Shown piece after piece: positions 13,966 through 50,503 of a stretch of 64,000 bases of DNA. The notes below the pieces were generated by a model, which was given only the letters and a program-made list of their open reading frames with translations, searched no databases and had not been told where the DNA came from. The stretch comes from Candidatus Margulisiibacteriota bacterium. GTDB lineage: Bacteria > Margulisbacteria > WOR-1 > O2-12-FULL-45-9 > XYB2-FULL-48-7. Numbering within the stretch: position 1 is the first letter of the stretch; each line of letters starts with the position of its first letter. The DNA is taken from the NCBI GenBank assembly GCA_041658645.1, contig JBAZZV010000006.1, positions 19,486 through 83,485 of the forward strand, in the 5' to 3' direction. The translations under genes and the position numbers were made by a program.

Positions 13966-14123
13966 AAATTAATCACTATGATATATCCCTAATTAACAGG
14001 GAAAATTTCATAGTTATTTTATTTAAGAAAACTGAAAAGCCATTGAGCTTGAAATATCTTGATTTTTTTACAATTGGCCCCCAGTCCCCTGAAATCCCCG
14101 CAATAATTCACGGATAATAGATC

Positions 14124-14741: not shown

Positions 14742-14803
14742 TCCCCAATCAAAATTACGAATGATGAATGCGGACTGCGGAATAATTCTGTTATAATACG
14801 TCC

Positions 14804-15665: not shown

Positions 15666-16220
15666 TTAAGCTTTAATATTTTCAGCCAGGCGAAAAAAAC
15701 GGCCGAGTGTTCTTTTATCCGCAAAATCGTAACCGTGACTATGATACACAAAGTCGCAGGAAGTCACAACATTCTGCTTTTTGCCGATCAAAGTTGACGT
15801 TAGTTCATACCCGCTCACTGATAATTGAGCACCCAAAATCTTATAGGTGTCATCCAATTCGGTCATGTTCAGCAGCCGAAATTCGCGGCCGGGCTCTCTA
15901 TTCCGCCACCCGATATAAGCCATGGCATCCTCATAATTGATGCAATCCACGGAAGCACCGGCTTTGCCTCTTTTTACAAGAGAAATAAGTGGCCGCGCGT
16001 TGTCCCCCGTGATCTGATAGTCGGACTCTTTGACGAATTTACGGAATTGGCCGACCGTGACTTCGCCTCTCATGACCCTGTATTTTTTCCCCGGGATCTC
16101 GATCATTTCTTCGCAACGAGGGCCCCTGCTACCCCTAACCGGCCCAAGCCCGGCCAGCCGCTGCGCCGGCAATCTTACTCCTGATCTTTTTATTTCCATA
16201 TATATCTTTCTCCTGTTCAT
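15666..16220 (-). CDS. FGE-sulfatase/SUMF1-family-like domain protein (short)
   Basis: YRVMRGEVTVGQFRKF...SVDCINYEDAMAYIGWRN resembles the FGE-sulfatase family fold; only 184 aa, possibly truncated. Confidence 0.4.
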   Translation of the reverse strand: MNRRKIYMEIKRSGVRLPAQRLAGLGPVRGSRGPRCEEMIEIPGKKYRVMRGEVTVGQFRKFVKESDYQITGDNARPLISLVKRGKAGASVDCINYEDAMAYIGWRNREPGREFRLLNMTELDDTYKILGAQLSVSGYELTSTLIGKKQNVVTSCDFVYHSHGYDFADKRTLGRFFRLAENIKA

Positions 16221-16375
16221 ATGTATATTGGAAAATAAATCGGGAGATTTCAGGCAATCTTAGCCAACCGAAAAGTCAGTCCCCTGAAATCCCCGCGATA
16301 ATTCACGGATTAGTCCCCAGTCAAAATTACGAATGATGAATGCGGACGGCGGAATAATTCTGTTATAATACGTCC

Positions 16376-17113
16376 GTGAAAAAGCTTTCGATCTTTTTTA
16401 GTCTGATAACGCTACTTTTGATCACCCTCTACGGCTGTGGCCAACAGAATCAAAGCTCCACCGGCCCGATTTTCACCGACCCCGCGACCAAGCTCGCCGA
16501 ACTGGCCAGCCAGGACTTTACTGTTAAGCTTTTTTACGAGGCGGTGGCGCTGGAGCCGAAGCTGAACCAGGCCGGGGTCCGGGCCAGCATCGGTTTCTGG
16601 TCGCGCTCGCCCAACCGGGACAATCTGGTCGTCCTCCTGAACACGATCAACGCTTACGTCTCAACCGAAACCTATCGGGCGATCTGGGATGAAGGGACGA
16701 CAACCGCTACCGCCCAGCAGTATCCCTCTTACATCACCATGAACAAGGAATACTGGTATGAGCGCGCTTATCCGTTAAGCGACGGGACAGTTTCGATCGA
16801 AGGGGCCCACTACGCCGACCCGCATCCGGTCACGACGCTCGAGGCGGACCTGATCTGGGGAGCTTATTCCCAGCGCTACACCGACACAGCCAAACTGATC
16901 CGGCAGGCGACCGGCATTACGGTCGAATCGTGGTGTTTTGTTCAGGGTGCGCGGGCGCCAAGAATATTCTACGCTTTCGAATTGCCCGAATTAGTCTCGC
17001 TGGAAGCAACCGGGGATGTCTACGTCCATTTCGCTACGACTTATGAAGCCAGTTGGTTAAACGCGAGCCAGTGGATAACAGGGACAACGAATGCCCCGAC
17101 GCCGGAGCCGTAG
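16376..17113 (+). CDS. Lipoprotein of unknown function (full-length copy); GTG start 6 nt after TATAAT
   Basis: MKKLSIFFSLITLLLITLYGCGQ lipobox; TATAAT 16364-16369. Confidence 0.7.
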   Translation: MKKLSIFFSLITLLLITLYGCGQQNQSSTGPIFTDPATKLAELASQDFTVKLFYEAVALEPKLNQAGVRASIGFWSRSPNRDNLVVLLNTINAYVSTETYRAIWDEGTTTATAQQYPSYITMNKEYWYERAYPLSDGTVSIEGAHYADPHPVTTLEADLIWGAYSQRYTDTAKLIRQATGITVESWCFVQGARAPRIFYAFELPELVSLEATGDVYVHFATTYEASWLNASQWITGTTNAPTPEP

Positions 17114-17136
17114 AATAGATGCTTACACTACTTAAA

Positions 17137-17826
17137 TTACTTTCCTGTCGTTTGTAGTGTAAGAATTATTTCTTGCGCCTCTTTCTCACGCATAACCAAA
17201 TGCGCCTTTGACCATTCCAGGGCCGCAATAATGGCCTTCTTCCAGGGTTTAGGCAATTCTTCATAGTAATCAATGATTAGTCGTTTGTCACTCGCCGTTA
17301 GCGCGAGTATCGCATGTTCAAGGTCTTTGCGTTTCTTATCTGTATTCTTTCTTCTGGCCGCGATTAACAGCTTGTGTAGTCCAAAACAAACCATATTCGG
17401 GACCAAAACATCAATGCTCTGTTCTTTTACCCATACCGGATTTTTAAAAAGGATATCAACAAATCGTAAAGGGATCGCCTTAATGCTTAGGTTCCTGACC
17501 TCTTTCGCCCCAACCTCTCCCCGACCCCTTTCCGGAGTCAAGAACTCTACTTTTAGATCTGTCCCCCACATATAGATCGAACCATCTGAATTAAACCCGG
17601 TTTTGAAACCCAATGGGGCCAACAACGCAGCAATATCAATTTTATTTTTGGCTTTATATGGGCTGGGGATAAGAAAATCAATATCTACAGTCCTAAAAGG
17701 ATACGCTTTCACGCCAAAATGTTTCTGATAAAGAAGAAAACACCAGCTACCGATCAACTCGACACCCTCATCCCATAAGCCGTTTTCCTGAAATACTCGC
17801 AATATTTTATGAACAATGCCGATCAT
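17137..17826 (-). CDS. Nucleotidyltransferase-fold protein (AbiEii/GSU2403-like putative toxin)
   Basis: 229 aa; ...FRTVDIDFLIP... NTase-like segment; ATGA overlap with upstream small gene. Confidence 0.5.
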   Translation of the reverse strand: MIGIVHKILRVFQENGLWDEGVELIGSWCFLLYQKHFGVKAYPFRTVDIDFLIPSPYKAKNKIDIAALLAPLGFKTGFNSDGSIYMWGTDLKVEFLTPERGRGEVGAKEVRNLSIKAIPLRFVDILFKNPVWVKEQSIDVLVPNMVCFGLHKLLIAARRKNTDKKRKDLEHAILALTASDKRLIIDYYEELPKPWKKAIIAALEWSKAHLVMREKEAQEIILTLQTTGK

Positions 17827-18128
17827 TTTTGCTTTTTTCTGCCTTTTGTTCTATTTAATATCTTGATCATTTCCTTTGTTTTTTTTAATTCCTTTATCAA
17901 TTTCATCCTTTCGTTTATTTTCTCCTTTATTTCCTCCGGCTCATCCTTTCCCAGGTATTTGTGAACCACTTTCGGCCCTCTCCTGACTTGAAGATAATAA
18001 TAATTCTTTCCGCCGATTTTCCTCTTCTTGACGCTCCCTTTAGGCAGGCGCCCTAAACGGGCGATGATCTTTTTCTCAGTCTGGAGATAATAATCCATGC
18101 TTTCCTTTAAGATATCTTTTAAAACCAT
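17823..18128 (-). CDS. Small basic partner protein of the NTase gene (putative antitoxin/regulator)
   Basis: Start MVLKDIL preceded by AGGAGG; KIGGKNYYYLQVRRG motif; 5' part of the six-frame ORF up to 18248 is probably untranslated. Confidence 0.45.
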   Translation of the reverse strand: MVLKDILKESMDYYLQTEKKIIARLGRLPKGSVKKRKIGGKNYYYLQVRRGPKVVHKYLGKDEPEEIKEKINERMKLIKELKKTKEMIKILNRTKGRKKQK

Positions 18129-18140
18129 CACACGCCTCCT

Positions 18141-18180
18141 TACACTACATTTGTAGATTATATCGGCTTTGTAGTGTAAT
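18141..18180 (-). promoter_or_regulatory. Palindromic operator TTACACTACA...TGTAGTGTAA flanking a TATAAT -10 box upstream of the NTase-partner operon; a second copy of the same inverted repeat lies at 17123-17165 just past the operon stop
   Basis: Minus-strand reading ttacactacaaagccgaTATAATctacaaatgtagtgtaAGGAGGcgtgtgATG. Confidence 0.5.
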
Positions 18181-18263
18181 AGCAAGCGGCTATTCAATCG
18201 GCTGCTTATTGCCCAACAAATATCAAAATATGGTATTTTGTTGGGCAACTAGCGTTAAGCGGT

Positions 18264-18461
18264 TTGCGTTTCGAATCGTGGTGTTTTGTCCAGGGTGCGC
18301 GGGCGCCAAGAATATTCTACGCTTTCGAATTGCCCGAATTAGTCTCGCTGGAAGCAACCGGGGATGTCTACGTCCATTTCGCTACGACTTATGAAGCCAG
18401 TTGGTTAAACGCGAGCCAGTGGATAACAGGGACAACGAATGTTCCGGCTCCGGAACCCTAG
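18264..18461 (+). pseudogene. C-terminal duplicate (65 codons) of lipoprotein gene 16376-17113
   Basis: 18262-18461 ~97 % identical to 16921-17113. Confidence 0.75.
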
Positions 18462-22436: not shown

Positions 22437-22919
22437 TCAGAAATAAATGTGCACGCCGAGATTGCTGTTCAGGAAATAAAGCCAGGTCGTCCGGCTCCCG
22501 GCCGACATCTGGCTAAGGTAAGTGGCGAAAAATACCTTGCCGTCCAGCGCGACATGATCGTTAATAAAGACCTCGCCGCCGACAAAAGGATTGAACGCCA
22601 CCCGGTCAAAAGAGACGCCGGCACTAGAGCCCTGATTGTCCTGGACCGTCGTGCCGATCTCGAGCAGGGTGTTCGGATAGACCTCGCGAACATAAAAAAG
22701 CCCCAGCGCGAGGTTGTCAATATTGCTGTCAGCCTGGCCGCTCTGCGTGCTGTTAGAGTAAAAGACGCTAAGATCTAACCCAAAATTGTTGTTCACGAAG
22801 CCCCGAACACTTAAAGAGGTAGCCCGCAGGCCGACCCCGGTCTTGCCGCCCAGCTCCAGCGCCAGCGACGTGCCGGCCAGTAACGTGACCAGGAGCAGAA
22901 GCAAACACGCTTTTTTCAT
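22437..22919 (-). CDS. Small outer-membrane β-barrel protein (paralog 1)
   Basis: Signal peptide MKKACLLLLLVTLLAGTSLA; C-terminal ...HIYF. Confidence 0.6.
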   Translation of the reverse strand: MKKACLLLLLVTLLAGTSLALELGGKTGVGLRATSLSVRGFVNNNFGLDLSVFYSNSTQSGQADSNIDNLALGLFYVREVYPNTLLEIGTTVQDNQGSSAGVSFDRVAFNPFVGGEVFINDHVALDGKVFFATYLSQMSAGSRTTWLYFLNSNLGVHIYF

Positions 22920-22929
22920 GAATTTCTCC

Positions 22930-23415
22930 CTATAAATAAATGTGCGCGCCGAGCTCGCCGGTCAGGACGTTAAGCGCAGTCGACCTGGACCCGGCTTCCA
23001 TCTGGCTGCTGTAAGCGCCAAAGAAGACCTTGCCGTCCAGTCCAACGTGGTCATTGATAAAGCACTCCGCTCCGATGAACGGATCGAGCTCGAGGCCGCT
23101 GTAAAAGGTGCCGGCATCGTACCCCTGCCACCCCAGCACATTCACGCCGATCTCAAGCAGTGTATTGGGGTAGATCTCCCACGCCCTAAAACAGCCGAGC
23201 GAATAATCGTATTCGGTGCTGTCCTGCTGGCCGCTCCGGGTCCTGTTAAAATAACTGGCCGTTACATCGAAGCCCAGATTATTGTTCACGAAGCGCCGGA
23301 CCGAAAAGCCGCTAACCTGCAGGCCGAGCCCGGTTTTACCGCCAAGCTCCATCGCCATCGACATGCCGGCCAGCAACGTAACCAGGAGCAGAAGCAAACC
23401 TGCCTTTTTCATCAA
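22930..23415 (-). CDS. Small outer-membrane β-barrel protein (paralog 2, tandem duplicate)
   Basis: ~50 % identical to the neighbour; signal peptide; C-terminal ...HIYL. Confidence 0.6.
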   Translation of the reverse strand: MMKKAGLLLLLVTLLAGMSMAMELGGKTGLGLQVSGFSVRRFVNNNLGFDVTASYFNRTRSGQQDSTEYDYSLGCFRAWEIYPNTLLEIGVNVLGWQGYDAGTFYSGLELDPFIGAECFINDHVGLDGKVFFGAYSSQMEAGSRSTALNVLTGELGAHIYL

Positions 23416-24660: not shown

Positions 24661-24744
24661 ATCACTATGACTTCGCTGAAAATAACCGGGGATTTCAAGG
24701 GGATTGCCAAGCCGCTGTTCGCCATGTCATTGCAGTTAAATAAA

Positions 24745-24880
24745 TGTCCTAGCCATCGAAACATCATGCGACGAGACCTCCGCTTCTGTAGTAAAAGACG
24801 GGAGCGAAGTTTTGTCGAACGTCATCTCTTCCCAGGTCGAATTCCACAAAAAATACGGCGGGATCGTGCCGGTGGTTTGC
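24745..24880 (+). pseudogene. Degenerate duplicate of the tsaD 5' end (first ~45 codons)
   Basis: ~75 % nt identity to 25912-26046, ending in the identical 22-mer aaatacggcgggatcgtgccgg. Confidence 0.7.
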
Positions 24881-24948: not shown

Positions 24949-25503
24949 ATGATCTCCCTGAAATCAGAAATAACACAGCAAGTATTGAACTATTTTTTCC
25001 TGAACCCGCAGGAAAGCCTTTATATCAATGAGCTGGCCAGGCAGCTTTCCCTTGACAAAAGGAACCTGGTAAAAAAGATCAAAGAGCTGGAAAATGATGG
25101 TCTTTTGATCAGCTGGTCGCGCGGCAATCTGAAGCTTTACGCCATTAACCGAAAGTTCCCCTTATACAAGGAGTACAAAAACATTGTGCTCAAAACAGTC
25201 GGCTTTGAAAAAGAACTTAAAGACGTTCTTAAAGGAACGGCCGGCGCCGAGAAAGCCTATATTTACGGCTCATATGCGAGGGATAAAATGGACGCTCACA
25301 GCGACATTGATCTTCTGGTTATCGGCAACCACGGGGTTGTTCTGCTGCAAAGAAAGATTTCACGCCTCCAGAAAAAAATTGGCCGTGAAATAAATGCCGT
25401 GAATATGAGCGCCGGGGAGTTCAGGAAACGCAGGGCAAACCAAGACCCTTTCCTTCAAAACATTTTAAAAAACAAATATATTGAGATCAAAAATGAAATT
25501 TGA
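24949..25503 (+). CDS. Minimal nucleotidyltransferase (MNT-type) with N-terminal wHTH
   Basis: GSYARD...SDIDLLVIG NTase motif; AT-rich. Confidence 0.7.
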   Translation: MISLKSEITQQVLNYFFLNPQESLYINELARQLSLDKRNLVKKIKELENDGLLISWSRGNLKLYAINRKFPLYKEYKNIVLKTVGFEKELKDVLKGTAGAEKAYIYGSYARDKMDAHSDIDLLVIGNHGVVLLQRKISRLQKKIGREINAVNMSAGEFRKRRANQDPFLQNILKNKYIEIKNEI

Positions 25504-25899: not shown

Positions 25900-26949
25900 A
25901 TGCTTATCCTCGCCATCGAAACCTCCTGCGACGAAACCGCGGCGGCCGTGGTCCGTGACGGCCAGGCCGTCCTCTCGAGCGTCATCTCCTCCCAGATCGA
26001 TTTCCACCGGAAATACGGCGGGATCGTGCCGGAGGTCGCCGCCCGGAAACATATCGAGGTCATAACGCCGGTCATCCAGGAGGCGATTTCAATCGCCGGT
26101 GTCGGCTTTAAGGAGATCGACGCCGTCGCCGTCACTTACGGCCCCGGCCTGATCGGTTCGCTGATCGTCGGCCTCTCCGCCGCCAAAGCGATCGCCTGGT
26201 CACTTGGCAAACCACTGATCGGAGTGAACCACCTTGAGGGTCACATCTACGCTAACTTCTTAACTTCCAACTTCAAACCTCAAACTTCAAAACAAATTAT
26301 AAATCCAAAATCAGAAATTCCAAACTTTCCATTCATTTGTCTTCTGGTCTCCGGCGGCCACACCATGATAATAAAAGTGAATGGTCACGGGCAGTACGAA
26401 ACCATTGGGCGGACTCGCGATGACGCCGCGGGGGAAGCTTTCGACAAGGTCGCCCGTTTTCTCAAACTCGGTTACCCCGGCGGCCCAATCATCGATAAAT
26501 TAGCTAAAGAAGGAAACCCCAAGGCAATTAACTTTACCCGCCCTATGCTAAATGATGGGTACGACTTCTCGTTTAGCGGGATCAAGACTGCTGTAGTCAA
26601 CTTTGGTACCAGGTACCAGGTACCAGGTACCAGGGTCGAAGATGTCGCAGCGTCGTTCCAGCAAGCCGTCGTCGACGTCCTAGTCGAGAAGACAGTCCGG
26701 GCCGCGCTTGACCACGGTTGCCGGACGGTTACAATCGCCGGCGGGGTCTCGGCTAACTCCCAGCTCCGCCAGGAGCTAATGACCAAAGGCAAAGCAGCCG
26801 GACTCAACGTCATCATCCTACCGTTCGAGTACTGCACCGACAACGCCGCCATGATCGCCTGCGCCGGTTATTACAAATTCATTAATTCGTCATTAGACAT
26901 TAGTCATTCGTCATTTTCCCTAGCCCCCGTTGCCAGTCTCAAGTTGTAG
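25900..26949 (+). CDS. tsaD: tRNA N6-adenosine threonylcarbamoyltransferase TsaD, carrying three in-frame repeat insertions
   Basis: [31 protein letters not shown]-terminal CTDNAAMIA; inserts at 26258-26335, 26609-26636, 26873-26905. Confidence 0.85.
   Translation: MLILAIETSCDETAAAVVRDGQAVLSSVISSQIDFHRKYGGIVPEVAARKHIEVITPVIQEAISIAGVGFKEIDAVAVTYGPGLIGSLIVGLSAAKAIAWSLGKPLIGVNHLEGHIYANFLTSNFKPQTSKQIINPKSEIPNFPFICLLVSGGHTMIIKVNGHGQYETIGRTRDDAAGEAFDKVARFLKLGYPGGPIIDKLAKEGNPKAINFTRPMLNDGYDFSFSGIKTAVVNFGTRYQVPGTRVEDVAASFQQAVVDVLVEKTVRAALDHGCRTVTIAGGVSANSQLRQELMTKGKAAGLNVIILPFEYCTDNAAMIACAGYYKFINSSLDISHSSFSLAPVASLKL
26258..26335. repeat. Family-2 dispersed repeat (single arm) inserted in-frame in tsaD
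   Basis: cttccaacttcaaacctcaaacttcaaaacaaattataaatccaaaatc...; relatives at 34646-34720 and 58655-58790. Confidence 0.6.
26873..26905. repeat. Family-1 repeat arm (cgtcattagacattagtcattcgtcatt) forming the 3' end of tsaD
   Basis: Similar to 648-765 and 46744-46783. Confidence 0.55.
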
Positions 26950-34389: not shown

Positions 34390-35058
34390 ATGAGCGATAT
34401 CGCCTACCAAATAGGGGATTCCCTGTATTTAAATATTACCAACCGCTGCACGAACGAATGCCCGTTCTGTATCCGGAATAAAGGCCGGCAATTCAACCAG
34501 CAATATGACCTCTGGTTGAATAAAGAACCAACTGTTGATGAGATCATGGCCGCGATCGGCGATCCGGCTAAATACGAACAAATAGTCTTTTGTGGATATG
34601 GTGAACCGACAATTCGGCTGGACATCATTAAGACGGTTACCGCCGAATTTAAATCCAAACTTCAAACCTCAAACATCCAAACAAAAGACAAATCCCAATT
34701 ATCCAACCTCAAAAACGCCGCATCACCTATTATCAGGCTGGATACGAATGGAACCGCCAACCTCTTCTGGGGGCGGAACATTTTGCCGGAATTGAAAGGA
34801 TTGATCGATTTCATTTCCATCAGCCTGAACGCGGAAAACGCTGAAAAATACAATAAACTTTGCCGGCCGATGTTCGGCGAGCAAACCTATGCCGCCGTCC
34901 TCGATTTTATCCGAACGGCCAAGAGTTTCATTCCCGTGGTCGAAGCGACAATCGTCGACCTCCCCGGAGTGGATAAGGAAGCGTGTCGCAAGGTCGCTAA
35001 AGAGCTGGGGGCGAGTTTCCGGGTCCGCCCCTATTATGAGGAGAGCTATGTCAAATAA
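34390..35058 (+). CDS. Small radical-SAM protein with in-frame family-2 repeat insertion
   Basis: CTNECPFC (Cx3Cx2C) near N-terminus; ~222 aa; insertion ...FKSKLQTSNIQTKDKSQLSNLKNAAS... Confidence 0.6.
   Translation: MSDIAYQIGDSLYLNITNRCTNECPFCIRNKGRQFNQQYDLWLNKEPTVDEIMAAIGDPAKYEQIVFCGYGEPTIRLDIIKTVTAEFKSKLQTSNIQTKDKSQLSNLKNAASPIIRLDTNGTANLFWGRNILPELKGLIDFISISLNAENAEKYNKLCRPMFGEQTYAAVLDFIRTAKSFIPVVEATIVDLPGVDKEACRKVAKELGASFRVRPYYEESYVK
34646..34720. repeat. Family-2 dispersed repeat (single arm) in-frame within the radical-SAM gene
   Basis: aaatccaaacttcaaacctcaaacatccaaacaaaagacaaatcccaattatccaacctcaaaaac. Confidence 0.6.
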
Positions 35059-36379
35059 GTATGATGTCGTTGTCTTAGGCGGCGGGCCGGGTGGTTACGC
35101 CGCGGCGATCCGGGCCGCGCAGCTGGGAGCGAAAGTCGCCCTGATCGAGAAGGACAAGCTCGGTGGCGTCTGCCTCAACCGCGGTTGCATTCCCACCAAA
35201 GCCATCATCGCCTGCACCTCGCTTTTCGAAAAGTTCCAGAAAGCGGAAAGTTTTGGCATCTCGGCCGGCAAGCCGACCATCGATCTCGCCAAAGTGATCG
35301 AGCGAAAGAATACGCTCGTAGCCAAGATCGTCAAAAACCTGCAGGGCTTGATCGAAAAGAACAAGATCGAGATCATAAACGGCAACGGGAAAGTCATAGC
35401 TCCGGGAAACATTGAAGTCACATTAAATAACGGTAGTAAATTGTCAGTTGTTAGTAGTAAGTTAATTATTGCTACCGGGTCTGTCCCCAGCTGTCTGCCC
35501 GGGTTGAGCTTTGATAAAGACCGCTACCTCTGCAGCGACGATGCGCTTGAGCTGAAAGAAGCACCGGCTAAGATTACGATCGTCGGCGGCGGAGTGATCG
35601 GCATTCACTTCGCGGCAATCTACAGTACACTGGGTTCCGAGGTCACTATTTATGAAGCCCTGCCGGAAATATTGACCGGTATCGATGAAGAAGTCGTCGC
35701 TTTGGTCAAAAGGATCTTAAACCGAAAGAAAGTCAAGGTTTTGACCGGCACCCGCTTCGACCCGGCCCAAGCCAAAGGCAAGACACTGATCTGCGTCGGC
35801 CGCACACCAAATATTATGGGGCTCGAAACTTTGGGCCTGAAAATGAGCAAGCGAAGCGTTTGGGTCAGCGAAAAGATGGAAACAAGTGTCAAAGGCGTCT
35901 ACGCGGTCGGCGACGTTTGCAGCCAAACCATGCTGGCGCATGTCGCGTATGAACAGGGCGTCGTGGCGGCGGAAAACGCGCTGGGCGGGAATAGAACGTT
36001 CAATTACGATTGTATTCCGATCGGCATTTATACCAATCCGGAGATCGGTGCCGTCGGGCTGACCGAAAAAGCGGCGCGCGAGAAAGGCATTAATGTCAGT
36101 ATCGGCAAGTTCCCCTTTGGCGCGCTGGGAATCTCGCAAGCCATGGGTGAGATCGAAGGATTCGTCAAATTTGTTTGTGATGAAAAAGGCAAGATTTTAG
36201 GCGTTCATATCATCGGACCGGAGGCCACGTCACTCATCGGCACGGCTGCCCTGGCGATAAAGAACAATTTATCGATTGAACAGATCGCAGAAACTTTCCA
36301 GTCCCACCCCTCCTACCCCGAAGGTCTGCAGGAAGCGGCCGAAGCGGTCCTAAAGCGGGCGCTGCATATTTTTAATTGA
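35047..36379 (+). CDS. FAD-dependent pyridine-nucleotide-disulfide oxidoreductase, dihydrolipoyl dehydrogenase family
   Basis: GGGPGGY FAD motif, GGVCLNRGCIPTK redox-disulfide motif, NAD-binding GGGVIG, C-terminal dimerisation domain. Confidence 0.8.
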
Positions 36380-36394
36380 ATCTCTTAAGTCAGT

Positions 36395-37852
36395 TTAGCC
36401 CGCGAATACCTTATCAATAATACTTCTAAAAAAAGGAAGAAAGCTTTGGTTTTCCCATGATTTCCCATAACTTCCTGAAAGACTGCTCATTAATTCATGT
36501 GAAAGGCCAATTTCTTCTTTCCAAGGATCGCCCGGAGCTAATCCATATGAAGAAAACGAATAATCTTCAGGCTCGATCCATTTTACTAATTCTCTTCGCA
36601 CTCTCGTTCCCGGGTACGGCATAAGAGGAAATATTCTCACTGAAACCTTTACCCCTTCTTCCGATAATCCCAAAAAAGTTTCCATGTCATCAGCGATGGC
36701 TCGAGCTGACTCCCTGTCTTCAAAAGGAGTTATTATATAAGATAAAAATAGTTTATGCGGCGGAATGTCCGGAGCCCGGGTATGCACTGTTTTTAAAGCC
36801 CGAATAAACTTCGCCAGAGCCTCTTTCTCGTCATCAAGTTGTTTCTGGCTTTTAACCTTCCCTCGCAAGTTACTGCCGGCGACCCGAGCGCTTTGTTCCG
36901 TCACCACATCGCGCCCGATGAAAAATTTAAAAAAGGCGTGCCGCAACAAAAAGGGCCCCAATTTGTTCCGATAATCATCCGAAACTATCAAGGATGGGTC
37001 AAGAAACGTTATTTTAAAAACTGGTCGTTCTCTGTCATATAAGCCTTCAAATACCTCACGATAATAATCAAATCTTCTTGTTTCAAATGGGTTGGAATCA
37101 TATAGTGACAATTGACCTGGAGCAAGATTAGCAAAAACCGGCCGGAGGCTGTCAATCACTGTTCCGGCTGCAAATAACGGGGAACGGCTTAAAGGAATCG
37201 CGCAAAAACCGCATCTGTTTTCACATGAGTCATCAAAGATCGTTCCAATCAGTCTCGATCCTTCGGTATATGTATAGGGGACTGTTCGTAATTGTGGGAA
37301 TTTACCGTAACCATGCCCCTTAACCTCTTCGCCGGCAGAGCCTAAATAATAAAGCCCGGGACTGGCTATCAGATCCTTTTGACCATGTTGATTAATAACT
37401 AAATCAATAAACGGCTGAGCGTGACCAACCACTACCGAATCCGCCAATTTTGAGACCAAAGCGGTTTCAACCGAATCGCGGTAACCCTCAAGTTTCTCTC
37501 TTTTAAAATGCGGCCCTCCCGCTACTATTCTTGCTTGCGGAAATTCTTGCCGTATCAATTCAGCTAAAGCTGTAAATTTAAAATACTCTTCCGAAGTGGT
37601 CGACAGGCCGAAAACCGCGTCGTTTTCACCCGCCACCGTTCTTTTCAGCTCTTCGATGATTACTGCCCTATCGCGCCAGAGATCCAGACCAACGGCAGGG
37701 TCCCCAGGAAAATGAAGCACATTATTGAATCCTGCCTGTCTTAACGAATCCTCAATCGTTTTTAATCCTAGACGCTTTTCTGGGTTAAAATGATGATTGA
37801 GCCAATGTGCCCCGATGCGGTAGTAACCAGCGCTTGTTAAAATGACTTTCAT
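36395..37852 (-). CDS. B12-binding-domain radical-SAM protein; lower GC
   Basis: CENRCGFCAIP Cx3Cx2C; N-terminal Rossmann-like B12-binding-like region; start MKVIL (alternative 37885). Confidence 0.6.
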   Translation of the reverse strand: MKVILTSAGYYRIGAHWLNHHFNPEKRLGLKTIEDSLRQAGFNNVLHFPGDPAVGLDLWRDRAVIIEELKRTVAGENDAVFGLSTTSEEYFKFTALAELIRQEFPQARIVAGGPHFKREKLEGYRDSVETALVSKLADSVVVGHAQPFIDLVINQHGQKDLIASPGLYYLGSAGEEVKGHGYGKFPQLRTVPYTYTEGSRLIGTIFDDSCENRCGFCAIPLSRSPLFAAGTVIDSLRPVFANLAPGQLSLYDSNPFETRRFDYYREVFEGLYDRERPVFKITFLDPSLIVSDDYRNKLGPFLLRHAFFKFFIGRDVVTEQSARVAGSNLRGKVKSQKQLDDEKEALAKFIRALKTVHTRAPDIPPHKLFLSYIITPFEDRESARAIADDMETFLGLSEEGVKVSVRIFPLMPYPGTRVRRELVKWIEPEDYSFSSYGLAPGDPWKEEIGLSHELMSSLSGSYGKSWENQSFLPFFRSIIDKVFAG

Positions 37853-37940
37853 AATAGTTTTATCCTGTTTTTCATTGCCTGACATATATCGATATCATTA
37901 AAAATATATTTCATTCATTTATAAATCTTTATATAAAGAT

Positions 37941-37999
37941 AAGGCGGAGATCCTACCCCAAAGGCCTGCAGGTAGCGGTCGAAGCGGGCGTAAAGCGGG
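37941..37999 (+). pseudogene. Degenerate duplicate of the lpd 3' end
   Basis: ~85 % identical to 36311-36369. Confidence 0.6.
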
Positions 38000-38010
38000 C
38001 GCTGTCTATC

Positions 38011-38634
38011 TTATAAACACTGTTTTCTTTCGGGTAATTCCAGGATTGGTGATTGAAACACCGCTTCCAGCATTCTAAAACCTCCACTTGATCTATATTG
38101 TTCAAAAAATCTTATGATCGAGGGGCTTTCTAAATAATTTCTAATCATGAGACTTTGCGGATGAAGCGCCGTAATGAATATTAATTTGCGTTGGGCCTCT
38201 GACAATCTTGAAACGGCCTCCCAAAAATCCATTAACACCTCACCATCGCTCCGATCGTCGCCGTATCCCGCTAATAAGTTCTGATCAAGCAAGCCAATCA
38301 GCCCCGGCAAAAAAGAATGGATCTCATCAAGCACATAAATATCAGCGACTGGCGCCCGGCTTAAGTCCGCATCAATCATACATCCGTGATGTGAATTATG
38401 ATGGTAACAACACAATTCGTTTTTTTTCAAATAGCTCTGCCATGCCGGGTTTTTAAACAGGCTTGTTTTGCCGATCTGTGTATTAGCGTTAAAATTGCTT
38501 TGATTTGTCCCGGTAACAACAAGCCGCGGAGAACAACCAACTAAGCGGATCAATGTTTCAATTCTATTGCCATCGGTTTTGGTCGGATAATATTTAGTTA
38601 TTATTAGTGGACCAACCGGAGCTACTCTTGTCAT
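38011..38634 (-). CDS. Hypothetical protein (207 aa) downstream of the radical-SAM insert
   Basis: ORF only; Cys/His-rich segment CCYHHNSHHGC. Confidence 0.4.
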   Translation of the reverse strand: MTRVAPVGPLIITKYYPTKTDGNRIETLIRLVGCSPRLVVTGTNQSNFNANTQIGKTSLFKNPAWQSYLKKNELCCYHHNSHHGCMIDADLSRAPVADIYVLDEIHSFLPGLIGLLDQNLLAGYGDDRSDGEVLMDFWEAVSRLSEAQRKLIFITALHPQSLMIRNYLESPSIIRFFEQYRSSGGFRMLEAVFQSPILELPERKQCL

Positions 38635-38671
38635 GCAAGATTGTCATTTAAAACCAGACAAAATTTCAGGG

Positions 38672-40297
38672 TTATTTAAGCAGGCTTTTCGCCGTCATCG
38701 CTTTGGGGATCGGCAGGCCCATCAAATCGAGCACGGTCACACCGACATCAGGGATGATGCCGGACTCATTCAATTTAACCTCTTTGCCGAGGACCCAGAA
38801 CGGGACCGGATTGAGAGAATGCTGGGTGCTGGCGACTTCCTGGCCCTTATTTTCCAGCTTCATCTCGTCGGCATTCCCATGGTCGGCGGTGATGATAAAG
38901 ACCCCGCCCTTGGCCGTCCAGGCGGGGACTAATTTTTCTAAACAGGCGGAGATGTCGCCGATCGCTTCGGTCGCGGCCGCCAGGTTGCCGGTATGGCCGA
39001 CCATATCGCCATTCTGGAAATTATGGACGACCAGCGAATACTCGCCCCGGTCGATCGCCCCCAGCGCGTAGTCGGTCTCCAGAAAGGCGGTCATCTCCGG
39101 CACCCAGTCGTAATGCTTCCCCTCTTCGGTCCGCTCCTTCAAGGTCATATCCTGGGCCAGATGGCGGTCTTCTCCCGGGAAAGGGTCCGCCCTCCGGCCG
39201 GAGAACCAGCCGGTGACATGAGCGAACTTCTCCGGACCGGCCAGACGCAATTGTTTTAAGCCGGCTTCGGATACGATCTGGCCAACCGTATCCGGGACCT
39301 CCTTCTCGGGGAAGGCGGTCAGGGCGTTCAAGCCGTGATAATACTCGGTCATCGCCACGAACAGGAGCCCGGCAACCTTGGCCCGCAACCCCTGAATCTC
39401 GTTGTAGCTATTGTCGTCGATCGGCTTCGTCCCTTTTTTGTAATTAAAATATTTCTTGTCCGTTTCGCAGAAGGCGGCCGTCAGCTGGATCGTCCGGTCC
39501 TGCCGGTAGTTCCAGTAAATGACCGAATCGTTCGGCCTCATCCCCTGATAATCACCGATAACCGTCGGCCTGATAAATTCATCAGTTTGCCCGCGAGCAT
39601 AAGAATTATCGATCGCTTCACGGGCAGTGGCGGCTTTAAATTCCCCCGTCCCTAGTACCAAGCACCTCATGCCTATTAGCGTCTTATCCCAGGACGTATC
39701 CCGATCCATCGCGATCTCCCGCCCCATCACTGTTGCGACCCTGGTCCCTGGTCCCTGGTCCCTGATCGCTTCTTCCAGCATCGGCAAATATATTTCTCCC
39801 GCCGCCTTCGGATTAGTGTCACGGCCGTCAGTAAAGAGATGAATAGCGATGTCGGTCAAACCGTTCTTTTTAGCCAACTCGAGCAAGGCGAAAAGATGGC
39901 GAATGCTGGCGTGGACAGTTCCGCCATGTCCTTGCAGGAGCCCCATGAGATGGAGGGTTGAATTATTCTGTTGACAACGGGTGACCGCCGCCGTCAGGGC
40001 ATCGTTGCGGAAGAAACTCCCGTCATCGATCGCCACATTGATCCGTTCGATCGACTGGTAGACGATCCGCCCCGCTCCCATGTTCAGGTGGTTGACCTCG
40101 GAGTTCCCCATCGTCCCGGCCGGCAAGCCGACCGCCAGGCCGGAACATTCCAGTTTGGCGTAAGGGTGATTTTTGAACAAGTCGGCAATGAACGGCGCCT
40201 TTCCCTGGTCGATCGCGTCGTAAATGGCGTTCTTCGGCCCCTGCTCTCCGACCGCGAAGCCATCCAGAATGCAAAGATAAACCGGTGTTGTTTTCAC
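38672..40297 (-). CDS. gpmI: 2,3-bisphosphoglycerate-independent phosphoglycerate mutase
   Basis: LCILDGF, metal-binding and ADHGNAD-type motifs; probable GTG start 6 nt after TATAAT; contains (agggacc)x3 tandem repeat at 39740-39766. Confidence 0.85.
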   Translation of the reverse strand: MKTTPVYLCILDGFAVGEQGPKNAIYDAIDQGKAPFIADLFKNHPYAKLECSGLAVGLPAGTMGNSEVNHLNMGAGRIVYQSIERINVAIDDGSFFRNDALTAAVTRCQQNNSTLHLMGLLQGHGGTVHASIRHLFALLELAKKNGLTDIAIHLFTDGRDTNPKAAGEIYLPMLEEAIRDQGPGTRVATVMGREIAMDRDTSWDKTLIGMRCLVLGTGEFKAATAREAIDNSYARGQTDEFIRPTVIGDYQGMRPNDSVIYWNYRQDRTIQLTAAFCETDKKYFNYKKGTKPIDDNSYNEIQGLRAKVAGLLFVAMTEYYHGLNALTAFPEKEVPDTVGQIVSEAGLKQLRLAGPEKFAHVTGWFSGRRADPFPGEDRHLAQDMTLKERTEEGKHYDWVPEMTAFLETDYALGAIDRGEYSLVVHNFQNGDMVGHTGNLAAATEAIGDISACLEKLVPAWTAKGGVFIITADHGNADEMKLENKGQEVASTQHSLNPVPFWVLGKEVKLNESGIIPDVGVTVLDLMGLPIPKAMTAKSLLK

Positions 40298-40310
40298 TGG
40301 TCTATTATAC

Positions 40311-40343
40311 AAAAAAAAGCCCGGCAGTTAAAGCCGGGCTTTT
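40311..40343 (-). terminator. Rho-independent terminator for the com-like gene
   Basis: On minus strand: aagcccggc-tttaact-gccgggc followed by tttttttt. Confidence 0.7.
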
Positions 40344-44359: not shown

Positions 44360-45079
44360 TCAAACCTTCAAGGTCGAAGCTAAAAGTTTCTGCGTGTAAG
44401 GGTCTTGTGGACTGCCTAGTACCTGGTCCCTGGTACCCAGTTCCACCAGTTTTCCTTCTTTCATGACCGCTATCCTGTCGCTCATGTAGCCGATAACATT
44501 AAGGTCGTGAGCGATAAAGAGATAAGTCAGGTTCAGCCGAGTTTTAACCTCTTTTAAAAGCTTCAGAATATCAACCTGGATCGAGACATCCAGCGCCGAG
44601 ACCGGCTCATCGAGGACCAGGAATTTCGGGGCGGAAGCAAGCGCCCGGGCGATCCCCACCCTCTGCCTCTCCCCGCCGGAAAGTTCATGCGGCCAGCGCC
44701 TGGCATAGGCGGCCGGCAACCTCACTAATTCGAGCAGTTCAGCCACTCGCCCGTTAATCTTGGCCTTGGGGAGAAGCTGATGGATCAAGATCGGCTCACC
44801 GATCGCTTCCCCTATCCTGATCCGGGGATTGAGCGAGGTCTGCGGGTCCTGGAAGACGATCTGGCAATCGCGGCGGACATTCTCAATTCCGTAGTAATTG
44901 ACCTCGCCGGAACTCGGTTCGATCAGACGGAGCAGTAAACGAGCCAGGGTTGATTTCCCCGATCCGGATTCTCCGACCAAGCCCAAAGTTTCGCTGTACT
45001 CGATAGTAAAAGTAACGCCGCCAACCGCCCGGACCGAACCGAAGGCCCTGGTTAGATTGTTCGCTTTGATCAACGCCAT
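44360..45079 (-). CDS. ABC transporter ATP-binding protein (oligo/dipeptide DppF/OppF type)
   Basis: GESGSGKST Walker A, LSGGERQR signature; contains gggtaccagggaccaggtac repeat at 44405-44435. Confidence 0.85.
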   Translation of the reverse strand: MALIKANNLTRAFGSVRAVGGVTFTIEYSETLGLVGESGSGKSTLARLLLRLIEPSSGEVNYYGIENVRRDCQIVFQDPQTSLNPRIRIGEAIGEPILIHQLLPKAKINGRVAELLELVRLPAAYARRWPHELSGGERQRVGIARALASAPKFLVLDEPVSALDVSIQVDILKLLKEVKTRLNLTYLFIAHDLNVIGYMSDRIAVMKEGKLVELGTRDQVLGSPQDPYTQKLLASTLKV

Positions 45080-45083
45080 CAGC

Positions 45084-45185
45084 TTAGATCCGGAAAATGA
45101 TGATGACCAGCAAGATCGTGATCGCCGCTAAAAGAACTAGAGCAAGGCCATTGATCCAGTTCGGCAAACGTTCCGTTAATTTCAT
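45084..45185 (-). CDS. Possible 33-aa single-TM small protein between the two ABC ATPase genes
   Basis: MKLTERLPNWINGLALVLLAAITILLVIIIFRI; preceded by AAGGGGTG RBS. Confidence 0.35.
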   Translation of the reverse strand: MKLTERLPNWINGLALVLLAAITILLVIIIFRI

Positions 45186-45187
45186 TA

Positions 45188-45979
45188 TTATTCACCCCTT
45201 CCGTTCAAGACTTTCAAGGCGCCTAACAGCCTGGCAGTATAAGCGGACCGGGGCGCCGCCAGAAGATCGGCCACGCTCCCCGCCTCCACCACCTCCCCCT
45301 GATAAACCACTAACGCTTTCTGACAAACCGCTTTAATGATCCCAAAATTATGAGTTATGTAAATTATGGATAGGTTCAAGCTTTTTTGCAACTCTTTTAA
45401 CAGCTTCAGTATCTCCGCCTGGATGGTAACGTCGAGCGCGGTAGTTGGTTCATCCGCGATCAGCAGTTCCGGCTGGCAAGCCAGCGCCAGCGCGATCATT
45501 ACGCGCTGCTTCATCCCGCCCGAAAACTGATGGGGATAGTCCCTCGCCCTGGCCGCCGGATCGTTGATCTTCACCAGATCAAGTAAGGCAATCGTCTTGG
45601 CCCAGGCTTCTTTCCTTTTTAACCCTTGATGCAATTCGATGGTTTCCGCGATCTGATCACCGACCGTGAAGAGCGGATTAAGCGAAGTGAAGGGATCCTG
45701 GAAGATCATCGATATCCCGGCCCCGCGGATCTTGATCATCTCTTTTTCCGGCAGGGTCAAGAGCGCCTGGCCGGCAAAGGTGATCTCCCCGGCGTCGATC
45801 CTGGCCGCCGGCGGCAGGAGGCGCATGATCGCCAGCGCGATCGTTGACTTCCCGGAGCCTGATTCGCCGACGATCCCCAGCGCTTCACCCTTGGTGACGG
45901 TAAAGCTCATCTCTTTGACCGCTCGAACCGGCTGGTCATTGACCAGATAGCTGACCGACAGCCCTTTAACCTCTAACAT
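45188..45979 (-). CDS. ABC transporter ATP-binding protein (DppD/OppD type)
   Basis: [17 protein letters not shown]. Confidence 0.85.
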
Positions 45980-46781
45980 TTAACTTCTCCCGCAACCCTT
46001 CGCCAACAAAATAAAGTGCTAGGACTGATATTAAAATTAAGACCCCCGGAATGATCGCCATCCACGGAGCATCGCGCATGTACGCCTGCGAATCCATCAA
46101 CATATTTCCCCAGGAAGACATCGGCGGTTGGACGCCGAGGCCAAGAAAAGAGAGGGCCGATTCGGTCAGGACAGCGCCGGCCATCCCCAGCGTTGCGGCG
46201 ACGATGATCGGGCTGGAGGCGTTCGGCAAGATATGGCGGAAGATGATCCGGAAGTCAGAACAGCCGATAGCGCGAGCGGCTTCCACATACTGCAACTCCC
46301 TGATCCGGAGGAATTCACCCCGCACCAGCCGCGCCACCCCCATCCAGGAAGTCAGCCCGATAACGATCATCACATTATAGATATTGGGAGTCAACATCGC
46401 CTGGATCGCCAGGATAAGAAAGATCGAGGGGAACGCCAGCATCACATCCACCCCGCGCATAATGACACTATCCAGCCAACTGCCGTAATAGCCGGAGAGT
46501 GCCCCAAGCAAAGTCCCGATCAACACGGAAATTATGACGGCAACCGCGCCAACGGTCAGCGAGATCCGCGCGCCGTAGAGCGCCCGGCTTAACAGATCAC
46601 GCCCCAGATCATCAGTCCCGAACAGATGCCGGAGTGACGGCCCCTGGATCTCCGATTCAGTGATCTCGGACGGATCAAACGGAGCCAGTGCCGGAGCAAA
46701 TATCGCGGCAGTTATCATGATTAAGATAATAATAATACCAACATTCGTCATTCGAAATTGGTTATTCGTCATTTTATTCAT
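45966..46781 (-). CDS. ABC transporter permease (DppC/OppC type); N-terminus encoded by a family-1 repeat
   Basis: Permease EAA-like region ALSFLGLGVQPP; N-terminal MNKMTNNQFRMTNV from repeat. Confidence 0.8.
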   Translation of the reverse strand: MNKMTNNQFRMTNVGIIIILIMITAAIFAPALAPFDPSEITESEIQGPSLRHLFGTDDLGRDLLSRALYGARISLTVGAVAVIISVLIGTLLGALSGYYGSWLDSVIMRGVDVMLAFPSIFLILAIQAMLTPNIYNVMIVIGLTSWMGVARLVRGEFLRIRELQYVEAARAIGCSDFRIIFRHILPNASSPIIVAATLGMAGAVLTESALSFLGLGVQPPMSSWGNMLMDSQAYMRDAPWMAIIPGVLILISVLALYFVGEGLREKLNVRG

Positions 46782-48406: not shown

Positions 48407-50503
48407 CTACAACCCTTTACTTTTTCTTAGCGCCGCCGCTGGGTCAGCTGGATTATTAACCGCAAAGCGCCAGGCATCAGACGGGGTAACTCCCTGATCT
48501 TGGTATTTAGCTGCCAGGTCTGCCGCCACTTTGAGTGCTTTCTTCAGCGCCGCTTCGGTATCTTTATACCCACCCGCAAAGTGCCAGGCATCGGACGGGG
48601 TAACTCCCTGATCTTGGTATTTATTCGCCAGGTCTGCCGCAACCTTTAGCGCTTTCTTTAGCGCGGCTTCGGCATCTTTATACTCAACCGCAAAGTACCA
48701 GGCATCGGACAGGGTAACTCCCTGATCTTGGAATTTATTCGCCAGGTCCGCCGCAACCTTTAGCGCTTTGGTTAGTGCTGTCTCTGGCTTGTCTGGATTA
48801 TAAACCGCAAAGTACCAGACATCAGACTTGGTAACTCCCTCAGATTCGTACTTTTTCGCTAGTTCAGTCGCTACCTTGAGCGCTTTCTTTAGCCCTCTTT
48901 CTGGATCGGTTGGATTTCTAACCGCAAAGCGCCAGGCATCGAACGGGGTAACTCCCTCAGATTCGTACTTTTTCGCTAGTTCAGTCGCTACCTTGAGTGC
49001 TTTCTTCAGCGCCGCTTCGGCATCTTTATACCCAACCGCAAAGTGCCAGGCATCGGACGGGGTAACTCCCTGATCTTGGTATTTATTCGCCAGGTCTGCC
49101 GCAACCTTTAGCGCTTTGGTTAATGCTATCTCTGGCTTGTCTGAATTTCCAACTGCAAAGCGCCAGACATCAGCCTGGGTAACTCCCTGATCTTGGTATT
49201 TATTCGCCAGGTCTGCCGCAACCTTTAGCGCCTTGGTTAGTGCTGTCTCTGGCTTGTCTGGATTATAAACCGCAAAGTACCTGGCATCGGATGGGGTAAC
49301 TCCCTGATCTTGGTATTTATTCGCCAGGTCTGCCGCAACCTTTAGCGCTTTGGTTAGTGCTGTCTCTGGCTTGTTTGGATTATAAACCGCAAAGTACCTG
49401 GCATCGGATGGGGTAACTCCCTGATCTTGGTATTTATTCGCTAGTTCAGTCGCTACCTTGAGCGCTTTCTTCAGTGCCGCTTCTGGATCGGCTGGATTAC
49501 TAACCGCAAAGCGCCAGGCATCAGACCGGGGAACCCCCTCAGCCTGATATTTATTCACCAAGTCAGTCGCTGCTTTGAGCGCTTTCTTCAGTGCCGCTTC
49601 TGGATCGGCTGGATTACTAACCGCAAAGCGCCAGGCATCAGACCGGGGAACCCCTTGAGCTTGATATTTATTGAAGAGATAATCAATATAACCAGCTGGC
49701 ATTAGTCTTTTTACCATTGTTGGAATTTGTTTAGGGGAAAATTTAGCAGTTAGATATTCTTCCACGGTTTTCATCAGCATAAGGGTTAGCCTTTCCGCGC
49801 CAACTTCCCTGGAACGGATTAAGAGCTGGTCGGCATCACTGGGTAAAAGCATCCCCCAGGCAACCAGGCGGCTTAATTTGGCCTCGTTACTCCTGACCAA
49901 TGCTTCAGCCGCCAAGGGAATAGTAGTTCCTGATTCGATATCAGGCAGAGAAAAACCGCTGAAATGCCAATGCCTCGTTATCTCCCCGGATAAATATTCA
50001 AAATAATTTATTTCTATTTGAGACAATGAACCGCATCTGCCTCGAGGAAGTTCCGTTGGCTGAAAAGAATAATCAGGAGTAGTAAAAGGATATTCTGTCG
50101 GCTGAAGCGGCCCCTCTTTTTGAATGATCGGTTGCGAGTATGCCGGCGCCACCTTAGTAATAGGAGAAGCGTCAACGATCTCCAATCCTTTCACTTGAGC
50201 AACTACATTTTGCTGGCCGTTGAATTCGCTTATGATCATCTCCCTGATCGGTTTGTGTGGCGAATTCGCGGCAATAAGAAACTCAAGGTTTCTTCCCCCA
50301 ACCTGGCCGATAGCCAAGACAACAACTGTCGGAGTTTTTTTCAAGCAGTCAATCGCCATTGCGGTTATTGTTCCATTGGTGTTCAAGCCGTTGAAATGAT
50401 GGCCTGGAAAAGTGAATTGACGGTAAGCCTGGAGCAAGCTCACGGTTTTCGCAGAAACCTTCCCGGCGCATGGGAATACACCTATTTTATTGATCGCAAC
50501 CAT
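48407..50503 (-). CDS. Repeat protein: ~330-aa N-terminal domain plus ~11 tandem 38-aa helical repeats
   Basis: Repeat unit ...GVTPSDAWRFAV.NPDKPEAALTKALKVAADLANKYQDQ... Confidence 0.55.
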   Translation of the reverse strand: MVAINKIGVFPCAGKVSAKTVSLLQAYRQFTFPGHHFNGLNTNGTITAMAIDCLKKTPTVVVLAIGQVGGRNLEFLIAANSPHKPIREMIISEFNGQQNVVAQVKGLEIVDASPITKVAPAYSQPIIQKEGPLQPTEYPFTTPDYSFQPTELPRGRCGSLSQIEINYFEYLSGEITRHWHFSGFSLPDIESGTTIPLAAEALVRSNEAKLSRLVAWGMLLPSDADQLLIRSREVGAERLTLMLMKTVEEYLTAKFSPKQIPTMVKRLMPAGYIDYLFNKYQAQGVPRSDAWRFAVSNPADPEAALKKALKAATDLVNKYQAEGVPRSDAWRFAVSNPADPEAALKKALKVATELANKYQDQGVTPSDARYFAVYNPNKPETALTKALKVAADLANKYQDQGVTPSDARYFAVYNPDKPETALTKALKVAADLANKYQDQGVTQADVWRFAVGNSDKPEIALTKALKVAADLANKYQDQGVTPSDAWHFAVGYKDAEAALKKALKVATELAKKYESEGVTPFDAWRFAVRNPTDPERGLKKALKVATELAKKYESEGVTKSDVWYFAVYNPDKPETALTKALKVAADLANKFQDQGVTLSDAWYFAVEYKDAEAALKKALKVAADLANKYQDQGVTPSDAWHFAGGYKDTEAALKKALKVAADLAAKYQDQGVTPSDAWRFAVNNPADPAAALRKSKGL
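48446..49680. repeat. Tandem array of ~11 near-identical 114-bp units (in-frame, coding)
   Basis: Period 114 nt, unit begins ccgcaaagtRccaggcatcRgac... Confidence 0.8.

Follow-up and report, generated by a model that had tools for sequence, protein, structure and literature searches.

Displaced end of a dihydrolipoyl dehydrogenase gene suggests integrase-free, homology-anchored entry of two orphan genes into a Margulisiibacteriota genome

Background

Integrative elements typically target the 3' ends of genes, supply a replacement end and leave direct repeats behind. Displaced 3' ends have also been described at type VI secretion system (T6SS) effector-immunity, Rhs and contact-dependent inhibition (CDI) loci, where they are explained by a model of homology-facilitated illegitimate recombination (Kirchberger et al. 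2017, PMC5361080); de Vries & Wackernagel 2002 and Prudhomme et al. 2002 are the works cited there for this type of recombination. Here we analyse a 64-kb stretch of a Candidatus Margulisiibacteriota genome (contig JBAZZV010000006.1 of assembly GCA_041658645.1). In this stretch, hereafter "the window" (position 1 is its first letter), the last codons of lpd, the gene of dihydrolipoyl dehydrogenase, recur on the far side of a radical S-adenosylmethionine (SAM) gene, next to a gene encoding a 207-aa protein. We favour, with moderate confidence, the reading that recombination anchored in homology and without an integrase displaced the resident lpd end, that the 207-aa gene came first and the radical-SAM gene later, and that both genes encode stand-alone proteins.

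On this reading the locus resembles the T6SS, Rhs and CDI cases in that a segment anchored on the conserved part of a resident gene would have supplied a new 3' end and left the old end orphaned downstream, with no integrase. It differs from them in that housekeeping genes (lpd, tsaD and iPGM, the gene of 2,3-bisphosphoglycerate-independent phosphoglycerate mutase) rather than polymorphic toxins are re-capped, in that the new end encodes the same protein instead of a new toxin tip, and in that the cargo consists of unrelated accessory genes; the mechanism, moreover, is here deduced from footprints alone. The event is a natural example of an already known recombination footprint, and an informative trace of horizontal gene gain rather than an unprecedented one.

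Results and Discussion

The duplicated end of lpd

A sequence-only reading of the window had proposed that the radical-SAM gene is inserted at the lpd 3' end and flanked by a duplicate of that end. The features concerned are the following.

35048-36379, plus strand: lpd, intact, 443 aa (TIGR01350 472.4 bits against a cut-off of 408.8 bits; Pfam Pyr_redox_2 and Pyr_redox_dim)
36311-36372, plus strand: repeat copy 1, the functional last 21-23 codons of lpd (SYPEGLQEAAEAVLKRALHIF..), HPSYPE motif included
36395-37852, minus strand: orphan radical-SAM enzyme with an N-terminal Rossmann/B12-binding-like domain, 485 aa (496 aa from an alternative upstream ATG at 37885)
37853-37950: AT-rich stretch 5' of the radical-SAM gene, whose distal end (…GGCGGAGA, followed by TCCTACCCC) is the non-homologous junction with the relic
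37951-38016, plus strand: repeat copy 2, the lpd relic, an apparently displaced and decaying lpd 3' end

The two copies form an ungapped direct repeat of 62 nt (36311-36372 and 37951-38012) at a spacing of 1640 nt, with 53 of 62 positions identical (85%) and a longest common exact run of 14 nt. In 30 shuffles of the segment 35000-39500, with the best 62-nt match scored in each, the highest value was 37/62 and the mean 34. The sequence-only reading, which put the identity of the repeat at about 85%, is thus confirmed by the pairwise comparison. Low complexity, the trivial explanation that it had named, does not apply, since the repeat sequence is not of low complexity and the shuffles top out far below the observed match. 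The start of the first copy had been placed correctly at 36311; the second copy, given as 37941-37999, was 10 nt too low and lies at 37951-38012. The homology between the copies has a sharp onset at TCCTACCCC; upstream of it, the two flanking sequences bear no relation to each other.

Copy 2 retains the lpd frame and ends at its own TAA stop codon (it reads SYPKGLQVAVEAGVKRALSIL, then stop). It is identical at 48 of 54 positions to the lpd ends of the window, of the closest genome recovered (L008, a member of the Margulisiibacteriota) and of a co-occurring haplotype on an ENA contig (L007, ERZ27249422), as compared with 27-31/54 for the lpd ends of Saganbacteria and others. The relic therefore derives from the lpd of this clade. 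The intact lpd of the window is itself a native-type allele (86% amino acid identity to that of L008). The functional lpd copies differ among themselves solely at third codon positions, whereas eight of the nine private changes in the relic alter the amino acid. One of these turns the glutamate of the conserved HPSYPE motif, which we take to be a member of the His-Glu catalytic pair in this enzyme family, into lysine. As its private changes are nearly all non-synonymous while the functional copies vary only at third positions, the relic is, judged from its substitutions, a displaced gene end that evolves without constraint, i.e. a decaying pseudogene fragment. This intergenic fragment has no match in Rfam and no cobalamin riboswitch lies nearby (fold z-score +0.86); a promoter and terminator scan gave weak consensus matches only.

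A metagenome assembly artefact joining strain variants is an extremely improbable source of this structure. Two lpd haplotypes do co-occur, and two Logan contigs break at 36351. However, the copies differ at 9/62 positions, which excludes the collapse or duplication of an identical repeat, and the relic is embedded in unique sequence, spanned to either side of it. The same arrangement is also present in independent assemblies (ENA contigs L006 and L007, Logan contigs L001 and L002) from at least four samples and different assemblers, a recurrence that argues against an artefact.

The inserted block

The surroundings of the repeat comprise three further features.

36380-38671: low-GC inserted block of ~2.29 kb, not found between lpd and iPGM in relatives
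38011-38634, minus strand: orphan 207-aa P-loop nucleoside triphosphatase (NTPase)-like protein, with a Walker A-like N..IGK[TS], a Walker B hhhhDE and a TALHP motif
38672-40312, minus strand: iPGM (TIGR01307 479 bits), the ancestral convergent neighbour of lpd

In L008, the lpd stop codon is followed, 2 nt on, by the stop codon of the convergent iPGM gene. In three Saganbacteria loci (L009, L010 and L017), lpd also converges on iPGM. As the lpd-iPGM junction is empty in all four, the entire block 36380-38671 is an insertion, the 207-aa gene included. The ancestral order is lpd converging directly on iPGM, and two low-GC (guanine plus cytosine) accessory genes today separate the pair; the lpd relic is in the middle of the block, between the radical-SAM gene and the 207-aa gene. 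The proposed insertion at the duplicated lpd end is thereby borne out. The presence of the radical-SAM gene at this site in all relatives, without a duplicate, had been named as the finding that would speak against it; the gene is missing there in every relative recovered.

The GC content of the radical-SAM gene is 0.441, against 0.527 for lpd and 0.522 for the window, so that the lower GC noted for this gene was correctly seen. The 207-aa gene, which had been thought to be possibly native, is not found at this site in the relatives, and its GC content (0.415) is lower still. By comparison, iPGM has 0.564 and the flanking genes 0.53-0.56. Homologues of the two inserted genes are found in genomes of matching GC content (0.455-0.459 for the radical-SAM gene and 0.415 for the 207-aa gene). 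Both genes are probably transcribed together with iPGM on the minus strand.

On the other side of lpd, the 3' end of a TatD-associated radical-SAM gene (34390-35058; TIGR04038, 260 bits) overlaps the start of lpd by 11 nt. The pairing is kept in L008 and L010. This conservation suggests that the TatD-associated gene is an operon partner of lpd, one not usually linked with lipoamide dehydrogenase.

Recombination traces in related contigs

Two sequences related to the locus delimit the following tracts.

38635-38712, minus strand: 37-nt spacer and last ~40 nt of iPGM, ~96% identical to contig L014 despite a synonymous distance (dS) of 0.6 in the adjacent 207-aa gene, and unlike the iPGM end of L008
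34884-36350: tract replaced in L007 by a foreign lpd allele (66% amino acid identity), with the right-hand crossover inside repeat copy 1

L014 is a Logan contig of 901 nt (positions 1-901; SRR22315506) from another metagenome. The 37-nt spacer between iPGM and the 207-aa gene, taken alone, is ~95% conserved between the window and this contig. In L014, a homologue of the 207-aa gene (65% identity) is bordered on one side by an intact iPGM end, stop codon included, and on the other by a second iPGM fragment. This fragment is degenerate, reads ITTDQGN for ITADHGN and runs to the end of the contig. Over the comparable stretch, this iPGM relic is nearer to the iPGM of the window than is the intact copy of L014. 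The pattern fits an intact iPGM end that came from a donor and a relic that belonged to the recipient, and the tract 38635-38712 of the window is probably a gene end that was brought in along with the 207-aa gene.

L007 is 100% identical to the window from 36351 onward, through the radical-SAM gene, the relic, the 207-aa gene and iPGM. Its lpd allele (~34884-36350) is as distant from the lpd of the window as is the lpd of Saganbacteria. The right-hand crossover is placed at 36293-36350, and both Logan contigs L001 and L002 stop at 36351, as expected at a haplotype fork in an assembly graph. Read from this alignment, L007 shows homologous recombination with very divergent DNA. Since the crossover falls inside repeat copy 1, the conserved lpd terminus has demonstrably been used as a recombination anchor in this population.

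Proposed course of events

We propose that the first arrival was the 207-aa gene, which settled beside iPGM and brought a new iPGM 3' end with it; L014, from a related lineage, would still retain the displaced old iPGM end. The radical-SAM gene would have arrived later, on incoming DNA made of an lpd 3' end followed by the convergent radical-SAM gene. The terminal stretch, which is strongly conserved, would have let this DNA pair with the resident lpd, and the other end of the incoming DNA would have been attached by a non-homologous joint at 62-66 nt upstream of the lpd stop codon of the recipient. The route may have been homology-facilitated illegitimate recombination, or the integration, by a single crossover, of a circular molecule with a short piece of lpd; both would leave the same footprint. 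In either case lpd would have been rebuilt intact from the incoming sequence, and the resident last 21 codons pushed downstream to decay there. No integrase or specific site would be involved, and the same process would account for three other inserts in the window (see below).

The footprint of homology-facilitated illegitimate recombination is found here in its three parts: one junction lies in homology with the resident gene, one is non-homologous, and the end of the resident gene has been moved downstream. The order of the two arrivals is suggested by two observations. The 207-aa gene shares its iPGM-side junction with L014, and the divergence of the lpd relic (~0.13 per site) is less than half of the dS of 0.6 between the window and L014.

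Several points weigh against this course of events. No microhomology is visible at the non-homologous junction in the comparison of the two copies. Self-tblastx detects no iPGM relic in the window, so that an extra deletion is needed. The donor arrangement, lpd beside this radical-SAM gene, was not found, nor any homology to donor flanks. Neither an intermediate (lpd and the 207-aa gene without the radical-SAM gene) nor an empty-site haplotype of the same species is on record, an exact look-up of lpd having returned nothing. L014, with its 901 nt, ends before showing whether the radical-SAM gene comes next. Finally, the same strand and the low GC content of the two genes are compatible with a joint arrival.

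Such a joint arrival is unlikely in our judgement. It would make the two genes one functional module (for instance an ATPase and a radical-SAM modifier) that came from a sister lineage by homologous recombination in the flanks, with the relic already inside. The genes are indeed on the same strand, 158 nt apart, both of low GC content and both missing from L008, and a relic of this clade's own lpd type fits an origin in a sister lineage. On the other hand, an end-displacement event is still needed to explain the relic, the 207-aa homologue of L014 runs into an iPGM relic, and the two families, with seven other radical-SAM clusters and ~20 representatives of the 207-aa family, are adjacent in none of the other contexts examined (L003, L004, L021, L022 and L023). 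In these, the radical-SAM homologues lie beside asd (L003, L004) or in other settings (L022, L023), and the 207-aa homologue (L021) between groES and a Nuo/Mrp-like operon. The neighbours of the other radical-SAM genes gave an hhalign probability of 0.1% against the 207-aa profile. No flanking repeats were found around the homologues of either gene in other genomes.

The sequence-only reading had suggested that the two genes form a peptide- or cofactor-modifying pair. This is unsupported, as the families are never adjacent elsewhere and what comes after the 207-aa gene of L014 is an iPGM relic, not a radical-SAM gene. We rejected a functional partnership on the lack of co-occurrence in the five other contexts and the negative hhalign result. 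To judge from these gene neighbourhoods, the two are probably neighbours by accident of insertion. A defence or phage origin was also considered and dropped, PADLOC and PHROGs having given nothing for either protein.

On the course of events that we propose, the locus is a dated, multi-step record of the entry of accessory genes into a compact genome of an uncultivated phylum, without mobile-element machinery. The displaced ends, the haplotype with a foreign lpd and the sister lineage with an iPGM relic allow the process to be followed nucleotide by nucleotide.

The two cargo proteins

The radical-SAM protein exhibits the cysteine motif CENRCGFC (C210-x3-C214-x2-C217), whose three cysteines are invariant in 8/8 homologues, and an AGGPHF motif in its N-terminal domain. 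Its family amounts to eight clusters, seven besides that of the window, in a search space of 5.8 billion sequences. PF04055 does not match the window protein at E<=0.001, and precomputed PF04055 matches exist for two distant homologues. The search for a subfamily assignment that the sequence-only reading had recommended reached no curated family threshold, no NCBIfam model being near threshold for the protein or its seven homologues. In IMG/VR there is one weak, generic match to B12-binding-domain radical-SAM proteins.

The AlphaFold2 model of the protein has a predicted local distance difference test score (pLDDT) of 83 and a predicted template modelling score (pTM) of 0.86. A Foldseek search with this model gave 38 PDB matches (E<=0.001), nearly all to radical-SAM enzymes. 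The predicted structure thus carries the partial TIM-barrel core fold of radical-SAM enzymes. The best matches (E-value 1.6e-12 to 1e-9, template modelling (TM) score 0.55-0.62) are AprD4 (6fd2), OxsB (5ul3/5ul4), TokK (7kdx/7kdy) and CysS (9n1b). Like these enzymes, the window protein has a Rossmann-like N-terminal domain followed by a CxxxCxxC radical-SAM barrel. Unlike them, it shares just 12-16% identity with any of the four, reaches no curated hidden Markov model (HMM) threshold and is not surrounded by a biosynthetic cluster.

The designation "B12-binding radical-SAM" stands as regards the cysteine motif and the B12-binding-like N-terminal domain. It is not borne out as regards cobalamin itself, for the PF02310 score of the N-terminus (26.9 bits) is under the cut-off of 32.1 bits, and the top structural match, AprD4, has a Rossmann-like domain yet does not bind cobalamin (PMC12931638). 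"B12-binding" is therefore a domain resemblance only. By its model, the protein is a stand-alone, unclassified member of the B12-binding-domain radical-SAM group, with a putative use of cobalamin.

A role as a modifying enzyme of ribosomally synthesized and post-translationally modified peptides (RiPPs) was rejected. The only RiPP-related HMM match, TIGR03975, scores 16 bits against a cut-off of 281.85 bits. The search for short precursor-peptide ORFs (open reading frames) near the radical-SAM gene, likewise recommended by the sequence-only reading, yielded no credible or conserved small ORF.

No Pfam or NCBIfam model matches the 207-aa protein. In an exhaustive HMMER search, 20 representatives of its family, all of similar length, were identified, and in the alignment of the 21 sequences K56, D103 and E104 are invariant, and I54 and G55 nearly so. 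The structure model has a pLDDT of 88. Its matches, all weak, are confined to generic ASCE-type P-loop ATPases: profile and fold comparisons point to RecA, BCS1, DnaC, IstB, Avs4 and p97, with TM scores of 0.38 or less. Compared with the 65%-identical homologue of L014, the gene exhibits a ratio of non-synonymous to synonymous substitution rates (dN/dS) of 0.36 at a dS of 0.6. This purifying selection indicates a real gene.

From its motifs, the 207-aa protein is a stand-alone, divergent P-loop NTPase. As in the minimal ASCE P-loop NTPases (DnaC/IstB-like, AAA+ and STAND cores), the Gly-Lys-Thr/Ser of Walker A and the Asp-Glu of Walker B are invariant or nearly so in its family. In contrast to them, it has only ~200 aa, the first glycine of Walker A is not conserved, an invariant asparagine precedes the loop, and a partner domain is lacking. 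Both cargo proteins are orphans of great rarity whose folds are predicted with confidence, and they may merit characterisation; nothing about them points to a specific new biochemistry.

Other duplicated gene ends in the window

Three more low-GC inserts in the window are accompanied by duplicated ends, 130-248 nt long, of their host genes: one at the 5' end of tsaD, and one each at the 5' and 3' ends of a lipoprotein-like gene.

16923-17113, repeated at 18271-18461: 3' end of the lipoprotein-like gene (16376-17113), its last 63 codons including the stop codon, 96% identity, 1348 nt downstream
17114-18270: insert between the lipoprotein 3'-end copies, 1.16 kb, GC 0.40, with an NTP_transf_8 nucleotidyltransferase gene (17137-17826, minus strand) and a 141-aa ORF
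16311-16558, repeated at 14739-14986: promoter and first 60 codons of the lipoprotein gene, 90% identity, the upstream copy cut by a stop codon
15053-15613 and 15666-16220: a GyrI-like ORF and a formylglycine-generating enzyme (FGE)-sulfatase-like ORF, respectively, between the lipoprotein 5'-end copies
25900-26036, repeated at 24740-24876: 5' end of tsaD (first ~46 codons), the upstream copy a decayed stub, 76% nucleotide identity
24877-25899: insert between the tsaD copies, 1.0 kb, GC 0.405, with a helix-turn-helix plus NTP_transf_2/Polbeta protein (24949-25503) and a 138-aa ORF

The NTP_transf_8 gene and the 141-aa ORF look like a toxin-antitoxin-like pair, and the helix-turn-helix nucleotidyltransferase gene with the 138-aa ORF looks like an MNT/HEPN-type pair. 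At the lipoprotein 5' end, a second short match, at another offset, connects 14061-14114 and 16256-16309. It suggests that a 205-aa ORF (14124-14741) is a nested insertion into the older copy of the lipoprotein end.

The repeats at the four inserts measure 62, 130, 191 and 248 nt, and no motif is common to the insert ends. These unequal lengths and the lack of a common motif argue against a site-specific recombinase. They bear on the possibility that the two lpd copies are attL and attR of a degenerate site-specific integrative element that rebuilt the lpd 3' end and whose integrase was lost or acts in trans. As with islands that target the 3' ends of tRNA or protein genes, the target gene has stayed whole, and part of its 3' end is present as a direct repeat beside the insert. 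Unlike those islands, the locus has no integrase (neither ORF of the block contains a recombinase domain, and PHROGs and PADLOC give nothing). The insert between the repeats is a single gene on 1.58 kb, and the repeats are diverged, being 85% identical without an identical core of more than 14 nt. We regard such an element as quite unlikely.

Very unlikely, too, is a local tandem duplication of the lpd end by slippage or unequal crossing-over, followed by an unrelated insertion between the copies. Tandem paralogues at 22437-23415 and 44375-45929 show that local duplication does occur in the window. However, two independent events would be required at the same 60 nt, and the 64 kb would have to have seen this on four occasions, always with the low-GC insert placed precisely between the two copies. 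Nor would it explain why the intact iPGM end of L014 is donor-like and its relic native-like. No relative with a doubled lpd end and without an insert was encountered. The paralogous pairs themselves (~55% and ~46% amino acid identity, respectively, the first pair without a Pfam match) are ordinary tandem duplications, unlike the end-duplication footprints.

Returning to displacement by incoming DNA, the four cases in the 64-kb window and the one in L014 raise a broader, decidedly tentative idea, which we hold to be possible though doubtful: that this lineage habitually gains cassettes of one or two genes, without an integrase, at the 5' or 3' ends of housekeeping genes, the gene being rebuilt from donor sequence and a decaying stub left over. 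If true, the whole lineage would acquire genes in this way, driven for instance by natural transformation with circular substrates or substrates of one-sided homology. Through the direct repeats, cassettes might also be able to excise again and spread further, and the cargo would include truly novel proteins, such as the radical-SAM family (8 clusters in 5.8 billion sequences) and the P-loop family (~20 representatives). If the pattern were genome-wide, homology-anchored illegitimate recombination would be a major natural route of gene gain, hitherto seen mainly in laboratory transformation and at toxin loci.

Other repeats in the window

An A/C-rich dispersed element of ~64 nt (CAAAC(C/T)TCAAAC...) occurs at 26261-26324, 34650-34713 and 58651-58714, with reverse-type copies at 9561-9596 and 58750-58785. 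One copy lies in frame inside tsaD, adding LTSNFKPQTSKQIINPKSEIPN. Another lies in frame in the TatD-associated radical-SAM gene, where it adds 13-17 residues that are not in L008 or L010 and splits the TIGR04038 match in two. The forward and reverse copies at 58651-58785 make up a palindromic unit. By analogy, the element resembles in-frame insertions of palindromic elements of the Rickettsia palindromic element (RPE) kind. A simpler possibility for the copy at 9561 is that it belongs to the normal coding sequence of a metallo-beta-lactamase-fold gene.

A second dispersed repeat, of 41 nt (TTCATTCG(G/T)CATT(C/A)G(T/A)CATTAGTCATTCGTCATT), is present at 727-767, 26878-26918 and 46736-46776, with 76-85% identity. 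A long tandem array of ~114-117-nt units (65-86% identity) extends over 48422-49673 in apparent coding sequence and is probably a repeat protein.

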